Part shown: positions 8,006 to 47,681 of the stretch, piece after piece
How positions within the stretch are numbered: position 1 is the first letter of the stretch
Layout: every line of letters begins with the position of its first letter
Origin: Raillietiella orientalis
Taxonomy: Eukaryota
Length of the DNA: 64,000 bases
Direction: 5' to 3'
Assembly (NCBI GenBank): GCA_036172245.1
Contig: JAYWIR010000024.1
Coordinates: 1,612,001-1,676,000 of the forward strand
The notes under the pieces: model-generated
The model's database searches: none
What the model was told of the DNA's origin: nothing
What the model saw: only the letters and a program-made list of their open reading frames with translations
Translations under genes and position numbers: made by a program

Positions 8006-11000
8006 TCACGCGGGATGGCTCTCTTTGCGGGCCAGCTTGCTTGGCGGTTCCTTCGCGAAGCTGGGGTCGCAGATGACGATGTCGTTCTCGTCCTGGGAGT
8101 GCTTCTTCGAGAGGGAGTTTGTGAGGGTCTTGGAGAGAGAGCTCGTCCGAGATCTGGTCTGCCCCGAGTTCATCTTCCTCTCGAGCCATTTGAGCATGGT
8201 AAGGACATCGTCGGTCCCGTAAAGGCGCCTGTTGGCCTGCGTCCTGACGGAAGGGTTGTGCGTGACGCGAAACGTCCAGGCGATCCCCTTGAGGGCCTGT
8301 ATGGACTCCTCGTCGATGGAGTCGTCCCCGGCGTAGATGACCTTCACTCGCTCGGCCCAGTCGAGGCCGTAGATGGTGCGCAGAATGTAGATGCACGCTC
8401 TGCCCTGGTCCCACTCGATTGGTGGCCTCGCCTGAACCGCGCACGCGGCGTCGCAGGCGAGGAGGCCGACCTCCAGTATCTTCTTTTTGACCTGCGCGAG
8501 CAGGGTCTTCTGCATGCTCGAAGGCACCTCGCGGACGTGGTAGCTTATGGAGACCCCCTTGTTTTCTAACCACGCCCCGTGATGGCAGTACTCCTCGAGG
8601 GTGGTCATCAGGCCATTGAGCTTTTCGTGCCACTCCAAGGGGACCGGATGGACGAACTTGGTGCCGTCGGGCTGCATGATTTCCAACCCGTTGATGCCGG
8701 CGTACGTGACGCCGTCCATGTCCACCATGGCCATGATGTCGGAGAGAACCCTTCCGGATATGATGGCGATGTGGACGTCGGGGTTGCTGCACAGCCTCTG
8801 GAGCACCCTCTTGGTCTCGCTGGGCATCAAGGCGAGCTCCGGGCGAGGGGCAAAGGGGGCCAGGGTCCCGTCGTAGTCCAGTAGGAGGAGGAGCTTGCAG
8901 CGCTCGTCCATGTAGTCGGAGAAGAAGAAGTCGAAGTCGTCTATGCTGAGCGGCTTCATCCGCAGGGCGGCGTGCGTCTCGTCCATGCCCGCCAGAGCGC
9001 GCATCTCCGCGAGAAACGACCTCATCCACCGATCGACGTCCCACTGCTTCTCTCTCAGCTGCAGTTGGTGCATGCGGACTGCCTTCTCGTCCTCTGTCAT
9101 TGTCAGTGCCCTGTGGATTGCCTCCGCCACCTCGTCTTTTTCGTACGGGTTGACCATCAGCGCCTCCAGCATGGTCTGGCCGGCTCCGGCGAACGGAGAC
9201 AGGATGAGCACTCCAGGTCGGTCCGTCTGGGAGGCGACGTATTCCTTGGCCACCAGGTTCATGCCGTCGCGCAGAGGGGTCACCAGGGCGACTGATGCGT
9301 CCCTGTAGTAGGCCGCCAGTTCCTCCTGCGTGACGCCCCGGAAGATGTAGCGGATCGGGGACCAATTGGGGGTGGAGAAGCGCCCGTTGATCTCCCCGGT
9401 CAGCTGGTCGATATCCTCCTTGAGGAGCTTGTATTCCTTGATGTCCGTCCGGGATGGCACGGCGATCTGCAGGAAGGTCACGTGTCCCAGGTGCTCCGGG
9501 TGCAGCTCTAGCAGCCTTTCGAAGCCCTTCAGGCGATGGACCAGCCCCTTGGTGTAGTCCATCCGGTCCACGCCGAGCACGACGCTGTTGCCCTCTTCCT
9601 TCTCGATGACCGGGGTGGCCGACCTCGCCAGCTTCGCGAACTGCTCGTAGGGGATGCCGATTGGCAGGGCGCGCACCTTGGTCGTCTTCCCGCCCAGCTC
9701 GACCAGCATCTGGCGGCGGTCCACACGGCATCCCAGGATCCTCTGGCAGCAGTCGAGGAAGTTCAGGCAGTAGTCCTCGATGTGGAACGCCACCAGGTCG
9801 CATCCTGGGGACGGGACCGGGGACGCCGCTGCAGACTCCCCGCGGGGTCAGGACTCCGGGATAAACCGCGCGCGAGCGCGCTCCCCCCTATGCCATGCTT
9901 CCTTCTTTCCTTCCCGGGGGTCCTCGGTAAAGTGGGGGTGGGTGGGGGGAAGAGAGAGAGAGAGATACTGATCCTTCCTCCTCCCTCTTCTCTCCGTCTG
10001 CTCCCTTCCGGAACATCCCTCGGGAAGAGCGCGTGATCCCGCCCCGGGGGGTCCGCCGCCGAAGGACCGACTCCCCGCGCTGCTCTGGAGCGCCCGGCTC
10101 GCTTCGCAGAGGCGTTACCGAGCATTCCCTGGAGAACCTCGTCGTCCCACGGGAAGATGCGGAAGATGTCCCACGGAGGAAACGGTATGTGCAGGAAGAA
10201 CCCTATCAGGAAGGGCAGGTTCCTCTCCTCCAGCTTCTGGAAGGAGGAGGGGAGGGGGAGGAGGTCGTGGTGGCTGCCATGCGGACCGCCGGGGCCGTGC
10301 TCACCTCCCGGAGGTTGCTGGCCAGGATCATCAGTTGGTAGTCGTGGATCCAGACGATGGGCAGACACCCCTCCGCCGGGCAGCTGCCTTGCATCTTGGC
10401 GCACGCCTCCAGCAGTTTGTCCGCGAACAGTTGGTTGACCTCGAGGTACGCCTGGAAGGAGGTGGAGGAGGAATGGAGGGCGGCAGCGGCCGCAACCGGC
10501 ATCTTTGTTCCCGTATCCCTCCCGCAGCCGAGGAGCCCTTCGGTTCCGGGTGGTTTCGACTCGAGACGGGTTCGGGATAAGGGAAGGAGAGAAGGGGGGC
10601 CGGCTGGCACTCCCTTTCATCCCAGGTGGGAAACGACCTGCAACTAGTCGGTCTTGGCCCTCTCTTTCCCCTCCTCCCTTTCCCCGAGAGGAAGGAGCAG
10701 TCGGGTGCAATCTGCGCCGTTCGCGAAGTTCCTGGATGCAGTCCAGGCAGGGAGGCTGCGAACGGGTCGAGGATCTCCCTGGTGGCGGCAGTGCCCGCGA
10801 GATGGTGCTGCGCGCTTCTCACCCGAGTTCTCGGGCACGCGCGCTCGCAGACGCGAGTGCAAGAGGGGAGGAAGGGCAAAGGAAGGAAAGGCAGAAAGCA
10901 AAAAAAATTATCTTGCAACAGGCGGAGTGACTCGTCTCCCGCGAGAGAGAGGAGAGCGTTCCTCGCAGTTATGGATGCCGAGTTATGGATGCTGAGCTTG

Positions 11001-12694
11001 CGGGGGACGCCCTCGGAAGAGAAGCAGAGGGAGAGCGCGCCGCAGGAGCATCTGCACCTCGCTCTCCTCTCCCTCCTGCTCCTTCCCGACGGGGAGAGAG
11101 CGGGAGGGAGACTCCCTTCTGCGCGCTTCTTTGCCCTCTGATTTTCCTCCGGCCATTATCTCCCGGCACGCTGGGAGCCGGCAACTCTGCGTCCCGAGGA
11201 CACCGTCACCGCGGAGGGCTCGCCGGGAGCACGTGGGAGACGGGGAAGGGCGCGTGTGCGCCGAGGGTGTGAGCCTTCCCTTCCCCCCTTCCTCCCGCTC
11301 CGTAAGCGCTCTCGCCGCGAGAGTCGGGAAGGAGGACGAACAGCGAGACGCGTTCCTCTTCCTTCGTCCTCCGTCCAGGTGACCCAAGGACCCTGGGAGT
11401 GGCTGCAGCTGCAGCCGAAGAGCAGGGGGGGGGGGGGAACCGGGCCCGGATTCGTTCTCTCCGGCAGGGAGTGGTCTCCGAGGCCATCGGTTCGGACGCT
11501 GCTCCTGGCACAAGGTCATTCCCCGCCGGGCAGGGAGTGCCAGGGAGCTCGTGGGGTGGGGTACTTCCAAATGGGAGAGTGCGAGGGGGGAAGGACCGTG
11601 ACTTGGGGCACCAGTGCACGCCCCGGAGGCCCGGTTCTGTGTAGCAGGGAGGACGAGGCGCTGACCGAGGCGCCGGACAGATCGTAGGCGCAGTGGCGCC
11701 CGGAGTAGCGGCACCGCCAAAGGAGGAGGGAAGGGAAAAGGGACGGGTCCGAGGGGACCCCCTGTGGGACATCTACCTTCCACGTATCCGTCCGGAACTC
11801 GGCGCGCCCCGGCATGGAGTGGAACAGCGGCCAGAGGGTACCATTGCAGCAGCCATTGTAGTAGGCATCGAAGAGTTCCTGGGAGATGTCCACGGGGACG
11901 ATCTGGGGAGGAGAGCGTGCTGAGGGGTGCGGCCGCGTCCGACCCCCTTACGGGGCAGTCGGAGGAGAGCGGGCAGAGGGGGGTTCAGCGTCCTCCCTCG
12001 GAGACACACCTGTCGGGAGAGCAGCTTGGCGGTGGGCGCTTTGCAGCCCGGCGGGGACTCCGGGATGGGCTCGTCCGGATCGGAGAGGTGCATCCCGGGC
12101 CATCCTACCCACAGCCCGTTGCAATCGGATACCACCGGTGCCACTGCAGTCACCAAGCCTCCGGCGCTGCAGGAGGGGAGGGAGAAAAACAGGAACGTTA
12201 GGGGACACCAGGGCGTCCTCTTGGGAGGAGGAAGAGAAGGAGAAAAGGAGGAGGAGAATGAAGAGGAGAAGGAGGAGGAGGGAAAAGGGAGGAGGAGAAG
12301 ATCAGAATGCCACGCCACGAAAAAGAGCGCGCACACCTTGCGCACGTGATGGCTCGTACGTGCTAGGCGTAGATGGCAGCTCCGCCATTCACCTCTTCTG
12401 CAGCTCTCCCCTGCGGGGCAGTCTCCGGCCCCTCCTTCCGTTACCCTCCTCTCCCTCCTTTTCATGACTCTCCTCTCCCTCCCTTCCCCCTCTTCTGCCC
12501 CCCTCCCGGCTGCAGCGATGGGCTCTCGCGGACCGGGGCCGATCGAGGCCTTCCCTATCCCCCTCTTCCCCCTTTTCTTCCAGGTCCCGAGCCGACACTT
12601 GCCTGGTCTTCCTCTCCAGCTTCCCGGTGCGCGGGTTCCTCTGCAGGACGAACGGCAGCCGGTTGGACACCACCAGGAGTCTCACGTCCTCCAT
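8006..12694 (-). CDS. Tps1: Bifunctional-type trehalose-6-phosphate synthase/phosphatase, paralogue A (GT20 TPS + HAD TPP domain; TPP site degenerate), 6 coding exons, 812 aa
   Basis: Minus-strand exons 12694-12603, 12166-12010, 11902-11777, 10451-10305, 10236-10119, 9804-8006 total 2439 nt and read through without stops. Motifs: VVSNRLP, SAGGLVTAV, YYNGCCNGTLWPLFH, WIHDYQLM, FFLHIPFPPWDIF, GVDRMDYTKG, VPSRTD, LRDGMNLVAKEY, then TPP DYDGTL, SGR, GDD. The first intron needs a GC donor. Confidence 0.95.
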
Positions 12695-23949: not shown

Positions 23950-24697
23950 ATGCCAGAAGTGAAGAACAGTTCCATCAACATCACCTGTCCCCTGATCGTC
24001 GCCTCCAACCGTTTGCCCTTTATCCTGAAAAGAGATCCGGAAACGGATGAGTTAGTCAGGAAACAAAGGTTGTCTTTTGCTGAGGCGGCAGAATGCCTGC
24101 AAGATTGCTGTGTTGTGTTTTCTGCTCTGTAGCGCCGGAGGTTTGGTCACTGCTGTCGCACCTGTGGTTGTACAGTGCAAAGGTCTCTGGATAGGATGGC
24201 CTGGAATGCACCTGGACAACCCGAACGACAAGATTCCGGAGTCACCTCCGGACAGCCGCGCACCAACCGCGGGTCTATCTTCAGACCAGGTAGGTGGGGG
24301 CGGTTCCCAGGCACGGTGGTCCTCGGTGGTTGCGCGTCTCCTGTCGGCTTTCACTTGAGAAGTGTGGAGGTCTGCACCGGTTGCGGGAGGGGGCACGGGT
24401 TCGATCCGTGGGGGCAGGTCTCTCGCGGGCAAATTCCAGGCGTCCCATAAACTGAGCGCAGTGGTAGGCCGGTGGATCCAGCCTTTGGATCCCCTTCCCG
24501 TCGTTCCTCATCGTGCCAAAGTACAGGGCGGAGGTGCTTTGGCTGCTTCGTAAGTTTTTGCGGGCTCGGAATTCTTCGAGCGGGCCGGGGGGGTGCCATC
24601 TTCTCTCTCTCGGCCTTTGATGTGAACATGATGAGCTGGATCTTGAAACCTGCGGTTTCCGGAGAGCGTGAAGAGGGAAACACGAACGCAAGAGTAA

Positions 24698-24730
<33 letters not shown>

Positions 24731-27700
24731 CACGCTTTCCTTTTTCCTCTCGAAAGCAGTCTGGTCCTCGCTGCTTGTCTGGCGTTCCTCTGGAAGCGCA
24801 TGTGACCCCGAGAACACTTGCTGATCTGCTTCGCGCGCATCAACAAGTGCGTAGGCGGAACGAAAGCTTCCGGGTCTGGCTGGCGCTCGCGAACCACGAG
24901 GCATCCTCACTGGCCGCGCTCTTTCGCCAGGGCTCGCACAGTCGGGCAGCAGGGAGGCGCGAGGCACATTCTCGGAGGAGTAGGAGGAGGGACGCTTGGT
25001 GCCCGCGCGCGCGACGTGGGCCACGCTAATGTGCTCTGCTCCGGAAGTGTCACGAATCCCGGAAGGGCGAAGGCGCGCCTAAGCACGCGGGGATCGTGGA
25101 CTCTTAAAGCAAGCGGAGGATGCTCAGAAGGGAGAGTGCTGGGTGCTCCGGTCTTTCCCCTGCCGCCAGTCGGCGGCGATGATGGGTGCAAGGAAATCGG
25201 CCTTGGCTAACCCCTTTCCCGGCCGCTTTTTCTGCTCGTCGTCAAGGGACCGCGTGCGCTGGAGGCGGGAGTCCTGCCCCCTGGACCTTGTTGAAGATGA
25301 ACCATAATTAACTCTTTTGCGATCCGTAGTCCTTGGTGAAGCGAGGGTCCGTGCCGGAAGGAAGAGCAGGAAGACGTAGACGCGCAAGGTGTCCCCGGGA
25401 TCTGGCTGTCCGCCCGTCTCCGCAGTTACTTCTTATCGCCGGGCGCTTCCCGCCTTCTCATCGTTGTTACCCACGTTTCCCCCAGATCTGTGTTGCCGTC
25501 ATCCGCGGTTGCCGAACGAGGTGATGCTGGAGAGGTCTTGACCTTCAACGGTTGTCTTCTCTCCCTCCCCCCCCCCCTCGCCTGCTTCGCGAGCGAATGA
25601 GGAAGCGGATGCTGTGCCAAATCTCAAATGTGCACTTCCGTCATCATCATCTTTCTTCTCTTCGTCTTCTTGCAGAGCGTCCGTTTTCAAGCGGAGGCTG
25701 GAGGCGCTCGCCCAGCTATTCTTTTGCTATTCTGGACAGGGTAGAGGTGAAGTGCGGTAGCTGAGCGCGTGCGCGCGCGACCGTTGGACCCTCTGGGCAA
25801 CGGCGGCTTCGTATTTCGTCTGAGGGAAACACATACAAGATCAGAGCAGCGTGAAACCGCGCGGTGTCGGTCGTTTCCGTCGGTGACGCCATCCCGTCGG
25901 AGGCGGAGAGCTCTCAGGGAAGAGGAAGCGGCGGAAAGGGAACAAGCAAAGCCAAGCAGTCAAGGACAGCAAGGGGGGGGGGGTCTCCAGCTGTGCACTC
26001 AAGGAATCCTGTAATGGAGGTTCCTCCCTTGAAAGCTCCGAACTGCAGCCTCCTCCTCGCGGGGGGGAAGGGGGAGGTGTTTCTGCGTTCTCTTTGTTGT
26101 TGCTGCTGCTGATGGTGTGGTGGGATTCCTGTGGGGCGCTGAAGCCGGCTGGGTGCCCCTGCTAGAGCTCGCTGAAGAGGCCGGAGATGGCTCGGGTTCC
26201 GCTGGTCTTTCCCAGAGGAGTGGGAGTAGGGGAGTAGGGGACGGAACTGATGCAGGGGGGTTATATCGTGTGCTTCCCCTCTCACGAGGAAGGACGGCTG
26301 TTTCAGACGATACCTCTCATCGTGAACCCTAAGGTCTTCGACGCGTATTACAACGGATGTTGCAACGGGACCTTCTGGCCGCTGTTCCACTCGATGCCCG
26401 ACCGGGCGATCTTCGAGGCCGACAAATGGCAGGTGGGAGAGCGATGGGGGAGAGAGACCCTTCCTTTCTCTCTGGGCTTCTGCAGCTCGCCCTTTCAAAA
26501 TCCCCTTTTCCCCCCACCCCCTCCTTCCCCAGGCTTACCAGGAGGTCAACAACCTGTTCTCTACGCTCGCCATCGAAGCCGTCGAGAAGCTGGACCCGGA
26601 GAAGGGCTCGCCTCTCATCTGGATCCATGACTACCACCTCATGCTGGTGGCGTCCACAGTGCGACAGGTGAGCGCACCGCACCTCGTGCACGTTGTTTGG
26701 GCTCAGTGGCCCCCTTTTCCCCTCCCCTTCCTCCTCCTGCCCTCCTCCCGACCTCTGCTGGTCCCTTCCTCCGCGTAGGCGTTGGAAGAGAAGCGCATCT
26801 CCTGCAAGTACAGCTTTTTCCTGCACATCCCCTTCCCCCCCTGGGACATATTTCGTCTCTTTCCCTGGGACGACGAGGTCCTGCAGGGACTCCTGGGTAA
26901 CGTCTTGGGGCGCTCTCGCCCGGAAGGGGGCGCCGCCTGCATTGCACGCGTGTAGGGGCGGACATGGTCGGATTCCACATCCAGGACTACTGCCTCAACT
27001 TCATCGACTGCTGCCACCGGCGCCTCGGGCTGCGCGTCGACCGCCACAACATGCTGGTGGAGATCGCCGGCCGCACGATCCTGGTGCGCGTGCTGCCCAT
27101 AGGCATCCCCTTCGACCGCTTCGTGAAGCTGGCGCACGAGGCGCCGAAGGTGGTGCGCATCAAGAACGAGAAGATCATCTTGGGCGTGGACCGCCTGGAC
27201 TACACCAAGGGACTGCCGCAGCGCTTCCGGGCCGTGGAGCGTTTCCTGGAGCGCTACCCGGAGCACCTGGAGCAGATCGTGTTCCTGCAGGTCGTGGTGC
27301 CGTCCCGGACCGACGTCCGCGAGTACGCCGCGCTCAAGGAGGAAATCGACCAGATCGTAGGCCACATCAACGGGCGCTTCTCCACCCCCAACTGGTCCCC
27401 GATCCGCTACATCTGCGGGTGCGTGTGCCAGGAGCAGCTCGCCGCCTACTACCGGGACGCATCCGTCGCCCTGGTGACCCCCCTGCGCGACGGGATGAAT
27501 CTGGTCGCCAAGGAGTTCGTGGCCTGCCAGACGGAAGAGCCCGGAGTCCTCATCCTGTCTCCCTTCGCCGGATCCAGCGAGACCATGCACGAGGCCCTTC
27601 TGGTCAACCCGTACGAGATCGACTACGTGGCGGACACCATCCACGAGGCGCTGACCATGCCCGAGGACGAGCGCGAGCTGCGCATCACGTACCTGCGCCG

Positions 27701-28736
27701 CCGGGAGCGCATCAACGACGTCAACGCCTGGCTGCGCTCCTTCTTCGTGGTGATGGGCATCAGCGAGAGCCAGAGTCACTCCGGTCCGGAGAGCAAGCAG
27801 CCCCGCACGACCCGCATGAACCCCCTCACTCCGGACGACTTCAACCCCTCGCTCAGCCAGTACCTGGACGAGGAGCCATGCAAGCTGGTGCTCCTCCTGG
27901 ACTACGACGGCACCCTGGCTCCCATAGCCCCGCGCCCGGAGCTGGCTCTCTTCCCCGAGGAAACCAAGAAAACCCTGGATCGTCTCAGCCACCACAGCGA
28001 CATCCACATCGCCATCGTCTCCGGGCGGGGCCTGGACGACCTGCGCAAGATGGTCGGCATCGAGGGCATCACGTACGCCGGGAACCACGGGCTGGAGATC
28101 ATGCACCCGGACGGGACCAAGTTCTGCCACCCGATCCCGCTGGAGTACGAGTCTAAGGTGAAGGAGCTGCTGCAGGCGCTCCAGGATGTGTGCTGCCACG
28201 ACGGAGCCTGGGTGGAGAACAAGGGCGTCATCCTCACCTACCACTACCGGGAGGCGCCCCCGGAAATTCAACGGGACCTCATAGACAGAGCCAAAGAGCT
28301 GATCGTCATGAACGGGTTCAAGCCCATCGAGGCCCACCGCGCCGTGGAGGCGCGCCCCCTGGTCAACTGGGACAAGGGGAGGGCCTCCTTGTACATCCTC
28401 CGCACGATGCTGGGGGTGGACTGGGCGGACAGGGGACGCGTCATCTACGTCGGCGACGATGTCACCGACGAGGACGCCATCCGTGCCCTGCGCGGAGTGG
28501 CTCTGACTTTCCGCGTCGCCAGCTCGGGCACGGTGCGCACCACGGCGAACAAGCGTCTCCCCAACACGGACGCGGTGCTGTCGCTGCTCAAGTCCATCGA
28601 GCGGCATTTCAGCGGGAAGGTGGAGACCAGCCGCCGCCGCTCGCAGTCCGGCGTCTCCGCCCCGTCGGCAGGCATTCTGCCCCTGTGCGGCGGCGGTTAC
28701 CCGTGCCGCGACGGAGCGCACCTCATTGCTGACTGA
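23950..28736 (+). CDS. Tps1: Bifunctional trehalose-6-phosphate synthase/phosphatase, paralogue B (all catalytic motifs intact), 6 coding exons, 811 aa
   Basis: Exons 23950-24068, 24133-24289, 26307-26432, 26533-26667, 26779-26896, 26956-28736 total 2436 nt, all with GT-AG introns. Motifs: ASNRLP, SAGGLVTAV, YYNGCCNGTFWPLFH, WIHDYHLM, FFLHIPFPPW, GVDRLDYTKG, LRDGMNLVAKEF; TPP DYDGTL, SGR, YAGNHG, HYR, VEARP, WDKG, GDDVTDEDA. Confidence 0.96.
24310..24480 (+). mobile_element. tRNA-derived SINE-like head in TPS-B intron 2
   Basis: A-box-like tggtcctcggtggtt (24317-24331) and B-box GGGTTCGATCC (24397-24407); no full cloverleaf. The 3' boundary is uncertain. Confidence 0.4.

Positions 28737-45038: not shown

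Positions 45039-47681
<2,643 letters not shown>

Follow-up and report, generated by a model that had tools for sequence, protein, structure and literature searches.

In Raillietiella orientalis, one of two neighbouring genes for trehalose-6-phosphate (T6P) synthase (TPS) probably encodes a protein in which the C-terminal T6P phosphatase (TPP) domain is a conserved pseudo-phosphatase, while the motifs of its synthase half are intact. The two genes, TPS-A and TPS-B, are TPS-TPP fusions arranged head to head in a stretch of 64,000 nucleotides (the window; contig JAYWIR010000024.1 of assembly GCA_036172245.1, positions 1,612,001 to 1,676,000), and 11,255 bp separate their start codons. TPS-A runs on the minus strand from 12694 to 8006 and encodes 812 aa, and TPS-B runs on the plus strand from 23950 to 28736 and encodes 811 aa with every TPP motif intact. 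The exon boundaries were placed by eye from the sequence; both six-exon models are open, with zero stops and zero frameshifts, and their five introns lie at matching places.

The motifs and codons from which a first, sequence-only reading of this DNA had concluded that the phosphatase domain of TPS-A is degenerate were quoted correctly: ATC AAC at 8695-8690 encodes I584 and N585, CAG at 8407-8405 encodes Q680, and AAG at 28374-28376 encodes K692 of TPS-B. We compared these sites with two reference sets, the 120 best listed homologues of TPS-A and 143 TPP-domain rows out of 150 far more diverse representatives. Among the 120 homologues, TPS-A alone differs at H585N, H591Q, E671Q and A714S, each site being conserved in 120/120; the site of K680Q has K in 107, Q in 12 and T in 1, the site of T710I has T in 107, a gap in 12 and G in 1, and the site of H667A has His in 108. 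In the diverse rows covering each position, His585 is present in 127/134, Glu or Asp671 in 123/125, Lys680 in 110/123 and Thr710 in 104/120. When these four positions are taken jointly, 101 of 117 rows retain all four and 3 lose at least two; TPS-A loses four. His, Glu, Lys and TDE are likewise conserved in 5/5 aligned solved TPPs (5GVX, 6UPB, 5DXL, 6QJ6 and 5DX9), and TPS-B retains Lys, His, Glu and Thr where TPS-A has replaced K680, H585, E671 and T710. With respect to the features of an active HAD-IIB T6P phosphatase, TPS-A has the DxD of motif I, the S/T of motif II and the GDDxxD of motif IV, and is without the Lys of motif III, the His of xHG and the cap Glu of ExRP; D523, D525, S563, R565, E627, K629, H636, R638, D707, D708 and D711 are all intact. 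Three further changes that had been read as decay, LAPF, the Ile of ING and YHVR, do not count as such, because F531 (46/138) and V637 (6/130) occur among the diverse representatives and position 584 is variable there.

The proposed selectivity of the changes in TPS-A for its TPP domain is real but modest. Of the columns in which 142 Lys-bearing homologues show 99% conservation or more, TPS-A alone departs at 7/69 in the TPP domain and 4/150 in the synthase domain (Fisher p=0.039), and at the 95% level at 15/113 compared to 15/232 (p=0.042), which is a modest excess. TPS-B alone departs at 1/69 and 2/150 of the columns conserved at 99% or more. Two points weigh against selective degeneration: the statistic for TPS-A is borderline at p=0.039, and the direct contrast of TPS-A with TPS-B by domain is not significant (p=0.54 at the 99% level and 0.32 at the 95% level). 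Rare changes of TPS-B at columns of this kind include a Trp to Ser close to where its TPP domain ends (~28500-28736) and an Arg to Glu late in its synthase domain (~27640-27660).

Judged from its sequence, the TPP domain of TPS-A is maintained and not decaying. The rate comparison by domain suggested in the sequence-only reading was run between TPS-A and TPS-B and gave nonsynonymous (dN) over synonymous (dS) divergences of 0.36/1.08 for the TPP domain and 0.30/0.93 for the synthase domain, which indicates purifying selection on the TPP domain. Identity between the two proteins is 57% for the TPP domain and 64% for the synthase domain. The G+C content at third codon positions (GC3) is near 0.88 in both genes, and therefore dS is probably underestimated. 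Recent gene conversion between TPS-A and TPS-B was ruled out by a longest identical run of 26 nt. AlphaFold2 predicts the TPP domain of TPS-A with a mean predicted local distance difference test score (pLDDT) of 95.1, and T6P phosphatases take the first ten places among its Foldseek matches, with template-modelling (TM) scores of up to 0.85 (5DX9 and 5DXI); the Candida regulatory-subunit domain 5HUS ranks after the TPPs (TM 0.71). The product of the last exon matches PF00982 (E 2e-82) and PF02358 (E 3e-27), that is, GT20 followed by Trehalose_PPase in one chain, and the TPP domain passes the cut-offs of TIGR00685 and PF02358. A complex prediction with the two TPP domains gave a median of 0.35, compared to 0.39 for a control, and speaks neither for nor against binding. 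Since the domain is under purifying selection and has a normal predicted fold, we consider a pseudo-phosphatase probable.

The synthase motifs of TPS-A are intact in an open frame, as the sequence-only reading had stated. Mapped by motif and spacing, TPS-A has equivalents of 11/11 substrate residues of C. albicans Tps1 (Y89, D143, H171, R280, K285, R318, D379, M381, N382, L383 and E387, those named in excerpts of PMC5527307), and the spacing from R280 to E387 is identical in the two proteins. HDYQL was considered as a possible synthase defect and rejected, since this position has Q in 45, H in 68 and no match in 37 of 150 representatives. Taken together, these residues make it likely that the TPS-A synthase works and makes T6P.

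The Gln at motif III is not confined to TPS-A. All 12 homologues with Q at motif III among the 120 listed have a four-residue gap in motif IV, where the Mg-binding aspartates would stand. We use "class 2", a label coined in this analysis, for hexapod paralogues with HDYQL and a non-Lys motif III; the set was enlarged by a profile search and cluster look-ups, with the 120 best matches per search, and its counts are minimum counts. The 179 tallied proteins comprise 143 that combine K with GDD, 29 with Q and no GDD, 3 with R and GDD, and 4 that are single cases or unscored. HDYQL, WDQG and the motif IV deletion occur together in at least 24 named pterygote species, namely two mayflies, two odonates, Blattella germanica (TPS1), a stick insect and 18 Hemiptera including Sogatella (TPS2). 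In Allacma and Orchesella, both collembolans, motif III reads WDRG and the aspartates are intact, and one basal hexapod class-2 sequence has WDQG with GDDPSDEEA, the pattern nearest to that of TPS-A. An intact second copy was found in at least 15 named hexapods, comprising 13 of the class-2 insects and both collembolans, and no holometabolan name was found in the Q/deletion set among the best 120 matches listed per search. With the trait columns removed, the class-2 clade has a Shimodaira-Hasegawa-like approximate likelihood-ratio (SH-aLRT) support of 100 with 14 rows and support of 99.9/100 with 9 rows, and the intact hexapod copies separate from it and group with Daphnia (99.9/100). An Artemia paralogue that has lost the aspartate of motif I as well as the His and the Lys joins the class-2 clade in the TPP-domain tree (SH 98, on a long branch). 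The sequence-only reading had recognised that Q at motif III might prove common in active arthropod TPS proteins. It is indeed common, but it sits in a clade mostly without the motif IV aspartates, and because it is shared with that clade, the reading of a dead phosphatase is supported and its uniqueness to TPS-A is removed.

Several single cases were seen in the same searches. In Penaeus vannamei, the adjacent TPS models ROT75321 and ROT75322 include one with Asn at motif III, possibly an independent loss of the phosphatase. Of the Ranatra chinensis copies, one of class 2 combines Lys with the deletion in motif IV, and a second is degenerate at nearly every TPP motif. In the stink bug Halyomorpha halys, the gene named Tps1 by NCBI belongs to class 2, having both Q and the deletion in motif IV. 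The ostracod Darwinula stevensoni has two TPS models with consecutive accessions on a 34,958-bp contig, both HDYHL with Lys, from a separate recent tandem duplication. The RNA interference (RNAi) papers on D. citri were rejected as class-2 data, since in the excerpts both concern an HDYHL gene whose motif spacing and primer fit the intact copy.

TPS-A has two class-2 traits, HDYQL and a non-Lys motif III, and is without the four-residue deletion of motif IV (GDDSIDEES). We consider it somewhat more probable, on the sequence comparisons, that TPS-A reached the K-to-Q state independently of class 2 than by shared descent. The TPP-domain tree pairs TPS-A with TPS-B (SH 97), and 276 of 308 quartets pair them, compared to 3 that pair TPS-A with class 2 (265 and 3 under LG+C20). 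No bootstrap split at 3% or more puts TPS-A inside class 2, and forcing it there costs 22-23 log-likelihood units; the control of forcing TPS-B costs 17-18, and TPS-A plus TPS-B costs 1.4-3.9. In addition, TPS-A and TPS-B share 12 private residues. Other results weigh against an independent origin. Approximately unbiased (AU) tests did not reject TPS-A plus class 2, with p values of 0.09-0.19 for full-length sets and 0.39-0.44 for single domains, and the bootstrap support for TPS-A plus TPS-B is only 32% in the full tree. The two genes form long branches and come from the same GC-rich genome. TPS-A has class-2 states at 16/49 positions compared to 5/46 for TPS-B, the best controls (Penaeus) having 12/49 and 12/41. 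A placement of the two genes with ostracods in two quick trees (SH-aLRT 93 and 90) was lost with more rows. It is doubtful, although conceivable, that arthropods have a two-class trehalose system, in which a bifunctional enzyme is accompanied by a synthase-only paralogue dedicated to signalling with a dead domain as T6P or trehalose sensor; this would take in either a lineage from the root of Pancrustacea (TPS-A, class 2 and the Artemia copy) or a repeated evolution of Lys to Gln.

In HAD phosphatases, the motif III Lys touches the phosphate (PMC4081830) and helps the aspartate nucleophile (PMC11046441), and cap mutations in the Brugia TPP lower kcat 85- to 400-fold (PMC4081830). Because TPS-A has lost the Lys of phosphoryl transfer and has an altered sugar pocket, its T6P hydrolysis is likely to be absent or very slow. 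We take H585, H667 and E671 to be sugar contacts. A loss or severe impairment of the phosphatase, as proposed in the sequence-only reading, has good support by inference from conservation and structure, but the nucleophile and the Mg-binding aspartates remain. Neither a physical partnership with TPS-B nor T6P signalling gained support from the results here. In searches of the whole genome with the protein and with the Pfam TPP and GT20 models, TPS-A and TPS-B were the only two TPP and two GT20 loci found, and the TPP domain of TPS-B was the only intact one. One trehalase gene was found as well. No stand-alone TPP or third TPS was found genome-wide among the best candidates, which were scored; a distant intron-split gene could escape such a search.

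As a whole, the explanation that we prefer, and hold tentatively at somewhat less than an even chance, is that TPS-A makes T6P with a dead but retained HAD domain and that TPS-B finishes the T6P. TPS-A would then be a duplicated TPS-TPP fusion that still produces T6P, and its C-terminal HAD domain would be a folded pseudo-phosphatase retained by selection, for stability or for binding a ligand or partner. The T6P would be freed and then dephosphorylated in trans by TPS-B, and TPS-A would serve as a separately regulated booster or valve of T6P flux. Cooperation with TPS-B is favoured because T6P accumulation is toxic or lethal in nematodes (PMC8277472). Some observations weigh against this explanation. 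The aspartates, the motif II Ser and the cap residues E627, K629, H636 and R638 of TPS-A are intact, which would allow a residual or redirected activity. In Drosophila, the synthase domain alone fails to rescue Tps1 mutants, a failure qualified by the expression of the stand-alone TPP in other tissues (PMC4965777).

It is unlikely, but deserves weight, that TPS-A is instead a dedicated producer or sensor of T6P where TPS-B is low, with T6P as a signal or regulator of glycolysis, a role known from plants and yeast. The dead TPP domain could then bind T6P or trehalose for feedback. Such a role would agree with the retention of the K-to-Q state, whether independent or shared, from mayflies to aphids and in the basal hexapod sequence, with the age of the class-2 clade (99.9/100), whose sister lineages include collembolans while class 1 groups with Daphnia, and with the metal site and part of the cap site being kept in TPS-A. 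Animal T6P signalling has been speculated on before (PMC8277472, PMC4965777). Accumulated T6P is toxic, which counts against a signal of this kind, and E671Q and H667A would probably weaken sugar binding. Slightly less probable is that the TPP-like domain is still an enzyme, either a slow T6P phosphatase or a phosphatase or phosphotransferase acting on another sugar phosphate. D523, D525, S563, D707, D708 and D711 are intact and the changes lie mostly in or near the substrate pocket, the domain exceeds the family cut-offs given above, and the collembolan class-2 proteins combine Arg at motif III with a full motif IV. Against a remaining enzyme, Lys is conserved at motif III in the diverse representatives (110/123) and the structures (5/5), and the pterygote relatives with the same Q have also deleted the Mg-binding aspartates, which suggests that Q at this site marks a non-catalytic state.

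We regard as improbable a mainly regulatory or scaffolding role, in which TPS-A would bind TPS-B in the manner of Tps3/Tsl1 and have only minor synthase activity of its own, since its synthase site is fully conserved, as it is in nearly all class-2 proteins where covered. The adjacent head-to-head genes, the Ser/Thr-rich tail of TPS-A, the fungal precedent (PMC11997177) and the presence of 5HUS among the fold matches (TM 0.71) speak for such a subunit. A non-adaptive origin, by relaxed selection on a redundant duplicate, an unexpressed gene or assembly errors, is very improbable: the long terminal branch of TPS-A (0.54) and the non-canonical GC donor of its intron 1 would fit it, but the frame is still open after an old duplication (dS about 1, no identical run above 26 nt), the TPP domains are 57% identical with dN far below dS and the same GC3, and base-call errors are an unlikely source of seven separate changes at near-invariant sites.

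A synthase joined to a dead phosphatase domain is a known kind of protein, and since plants, nematodes and fungi have such proteins, TPS-A is not a new category; its recurrence in a conserved class of arthropod paralogues has apparently gone unremarked in the excerpts surveyed. A review states that the copies of B. germanica and N. lugens all have two conserved domains and that their functional differences are unclear (PMC5797772), and a psyllid annotation likewise gives copies with both domains (PMC9933520). No motif analysis was found in the excerpts of the N. lugens TPS3 paper (PMC7527630), and no loss of motif III or IV in a second arthropod TPS was found in a literature survey covering text excerpts of mostly open-access papers. 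In some animals the TPP domain is gone altogether, and a signalling role of T6P has been put forward for these (PMC8277472). Animal TPS-TPP fusions are treated as self-sufficient two-step enzymes, second copies in the cockroach, planthoppers, psyllids and aphids are described as two-domain, and the class-2 genes include ones already cloned. Non-catalytic maize TPSs reportedly bind a TPP (PMC12478316). If one copy is routinely phosphatase-dead, animals kept an enzyme able to uncouple T6P synthesis from hydrolysis; animal T6P signalling would then become directly testable in tractable insects, and RNAi studies of multiple TPS genes in Hemiptera would need rereading. The half-disabled insect copies hint at a possible overlooked role of T6P in animals, and TPS-A and TPS-B, with the same introns, TPP domains 57% identical and a handful of active-site differences, offer a compact natural comparison.

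The features of both genes are collected in the table. Intron 1 of TPS-A (12602-12167, minus strand) is of the GC-AG type, and the matching TPS-B intron has a GT donor.

Features of TPS-A and TPS-B, in window positions
Feature	Position	Strand	Remarks
TPS-A exon 1	12603..12694	-	ATG at 12694; SNR motif; followed by the GC-AG intron
TPS-A exon 2	12010..12166	-	GGL motif; 157 nt, as TPS-B exon 2
TPS-A exon 3	11777..11902	-	YYNGCCNG; 126 nt, as TPS-B exon 3
TPS-A exon 4	10305..10451	-	HDYQL; Q164 common to hexapod class-2 paralogues and frequent in microbes
TPS-A exon 5	10119..10236	-	FLHIPFP; 118 nt, as TPS-B exon 5
TPS-A exon 6	8006..9804	-	C-terminal half of GT20 synthase, linker, TPP domain, Ser/Thr-rich tail, stop
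TPS-A TPP-like HAD-IIB domain	8174..8902	-	residues ~515-757; AlphaFold2 pLDDT 95; top fold matches are TPPs
TPS-A HAD motif I, D523-Y-D525, intact	8870..8878	-	
TPS-A N585 (AAC) in place of the xHG His	8690..8692	-	
TPS-A Q671 in place of the conserved cap Glu of ExRP	8432..8434	-	
TPS-A A667 in place of His	8446-8444	-	
TPS-A Q680 (CAG) in place of the HAD motif III Lys	8405..8407	-	
TPS-A motif IV, DDSIDEES	8303..8326	-	D707, D708, D711 intact; T710I, D713E, A714S changed
TPS-B exons	23950-24068, 24133-24289, 26307-26432, 26533-26667, 26779-26896, 26956-28736	+	
TPS-B TPP domain	27879..28613	+	H596 28086-28088; E683 28347-28349; K692 28374-28376

Elsewhere in the window, the sole other region flagged by a GC3 scan was coding-like sequence at about 45042-46700 on the minus strand, ~16 kb past TPS-B, which is presumably an intron-containing actin gene. 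On the mitochondrial contig, trnL2 is followed in 1741-2300 by ~500 bp resembling a decayed duplicate and a second, partial trnL2 before cox2. A cuticle-protein family marks the genome as that of an arthropod, and trnL2 between cox1 and cox2 is a pancrustacean trait; a pancrustacean outside the hexapods is likely. The order cox1-trnL2-cox2-trnD-atp8 is the one tabulated for Armillifer and Argulus (PMC12856591, PMC10999652). The nad3-A-R-K-N block of these two was not found in the next mitochondrial stretch, where tRNAs were read mostly by eye, and the tRNA block after cox3 looks rearranged. The 54 COX1 matches on many contigs were mostly broken, which points to many nuclear copies of mitochondrial DNA.

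Among known systems, the metazoan TPS-TPP fusions such as Drosophila Tps1 have the same layout of GT20 and HAD-IIB TPP domains as TPS-A, and TPS-B has every motif. The TPP region of TPS-A is 50-57% identical to its 120 best listed homologues, nearly all of them arthropod where named; the named best matches to TPS-A are from arthropods and a tunicate, and bacterial-type representatives score lower. In Drosophila Tps1, both domains are needed and the TPP domain is active (PMC4965777), whereas TPS-A has lost four conserved residues of this domain, the Lys of motif III among them. The stand-alone Drosophila protein CG5177 is an insect TPP-family domain in which T6P phosphatase activity was absent in vitro (PMC4965777), but it is not fused to a synthase. 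Class 2 (B. germanica TPS1, S. furcifera TPS2, and the second TPS of N. lugens, D. citri, aphids, odonates, mayflies and collembolans) shares with TPS-A the synthase motifs, HDYQL and an intact paralogue, as well as WDQG except for the collembolan Arg, and its basal member also has GDDxxDEE. In pterygote class 2, motif IV is deleted and the His and Glu are kept; TPS-A shows the reverse, with the motif IV aspartates kept and the His and Glu lost.

Subunits of the yeast Tps3/Tsl1 type have a degenerate synthase site. They and Candida Tps3 (5HUS, the TM 0.71 match) carry a non-catalytic TPP fold in a synthase paralogue, as TPS-A probably does; the precedent drawn in the sequence-only reading is imperfect because TPS-A keeps its synthase site. 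In fungi, Tps3 and Tsl1 belong to a complex, in which they are the regulatory subunits (PMC11997177). In plants, the TPS1-type (class I) proteins combine a synthase with a TPP-like domain that has become inactive (PMC4965777), as proposed for TPS-A, and nematode tps-1 and tps-2 combine a synthase with a TPP-like domain while a separate TPP does the work of the phosphatase (PMC8277472). The plant and nematode proteins have separate origins and are accompanied by stand-alone TPPs, whereas the only intact TPP found here lies inside TPS-B. By our comparison, the plant TPS1-type proteins and nematode tps-1 and tps-2 are closer precedents for TPS-A than yeast Tps3 and Tsl1.

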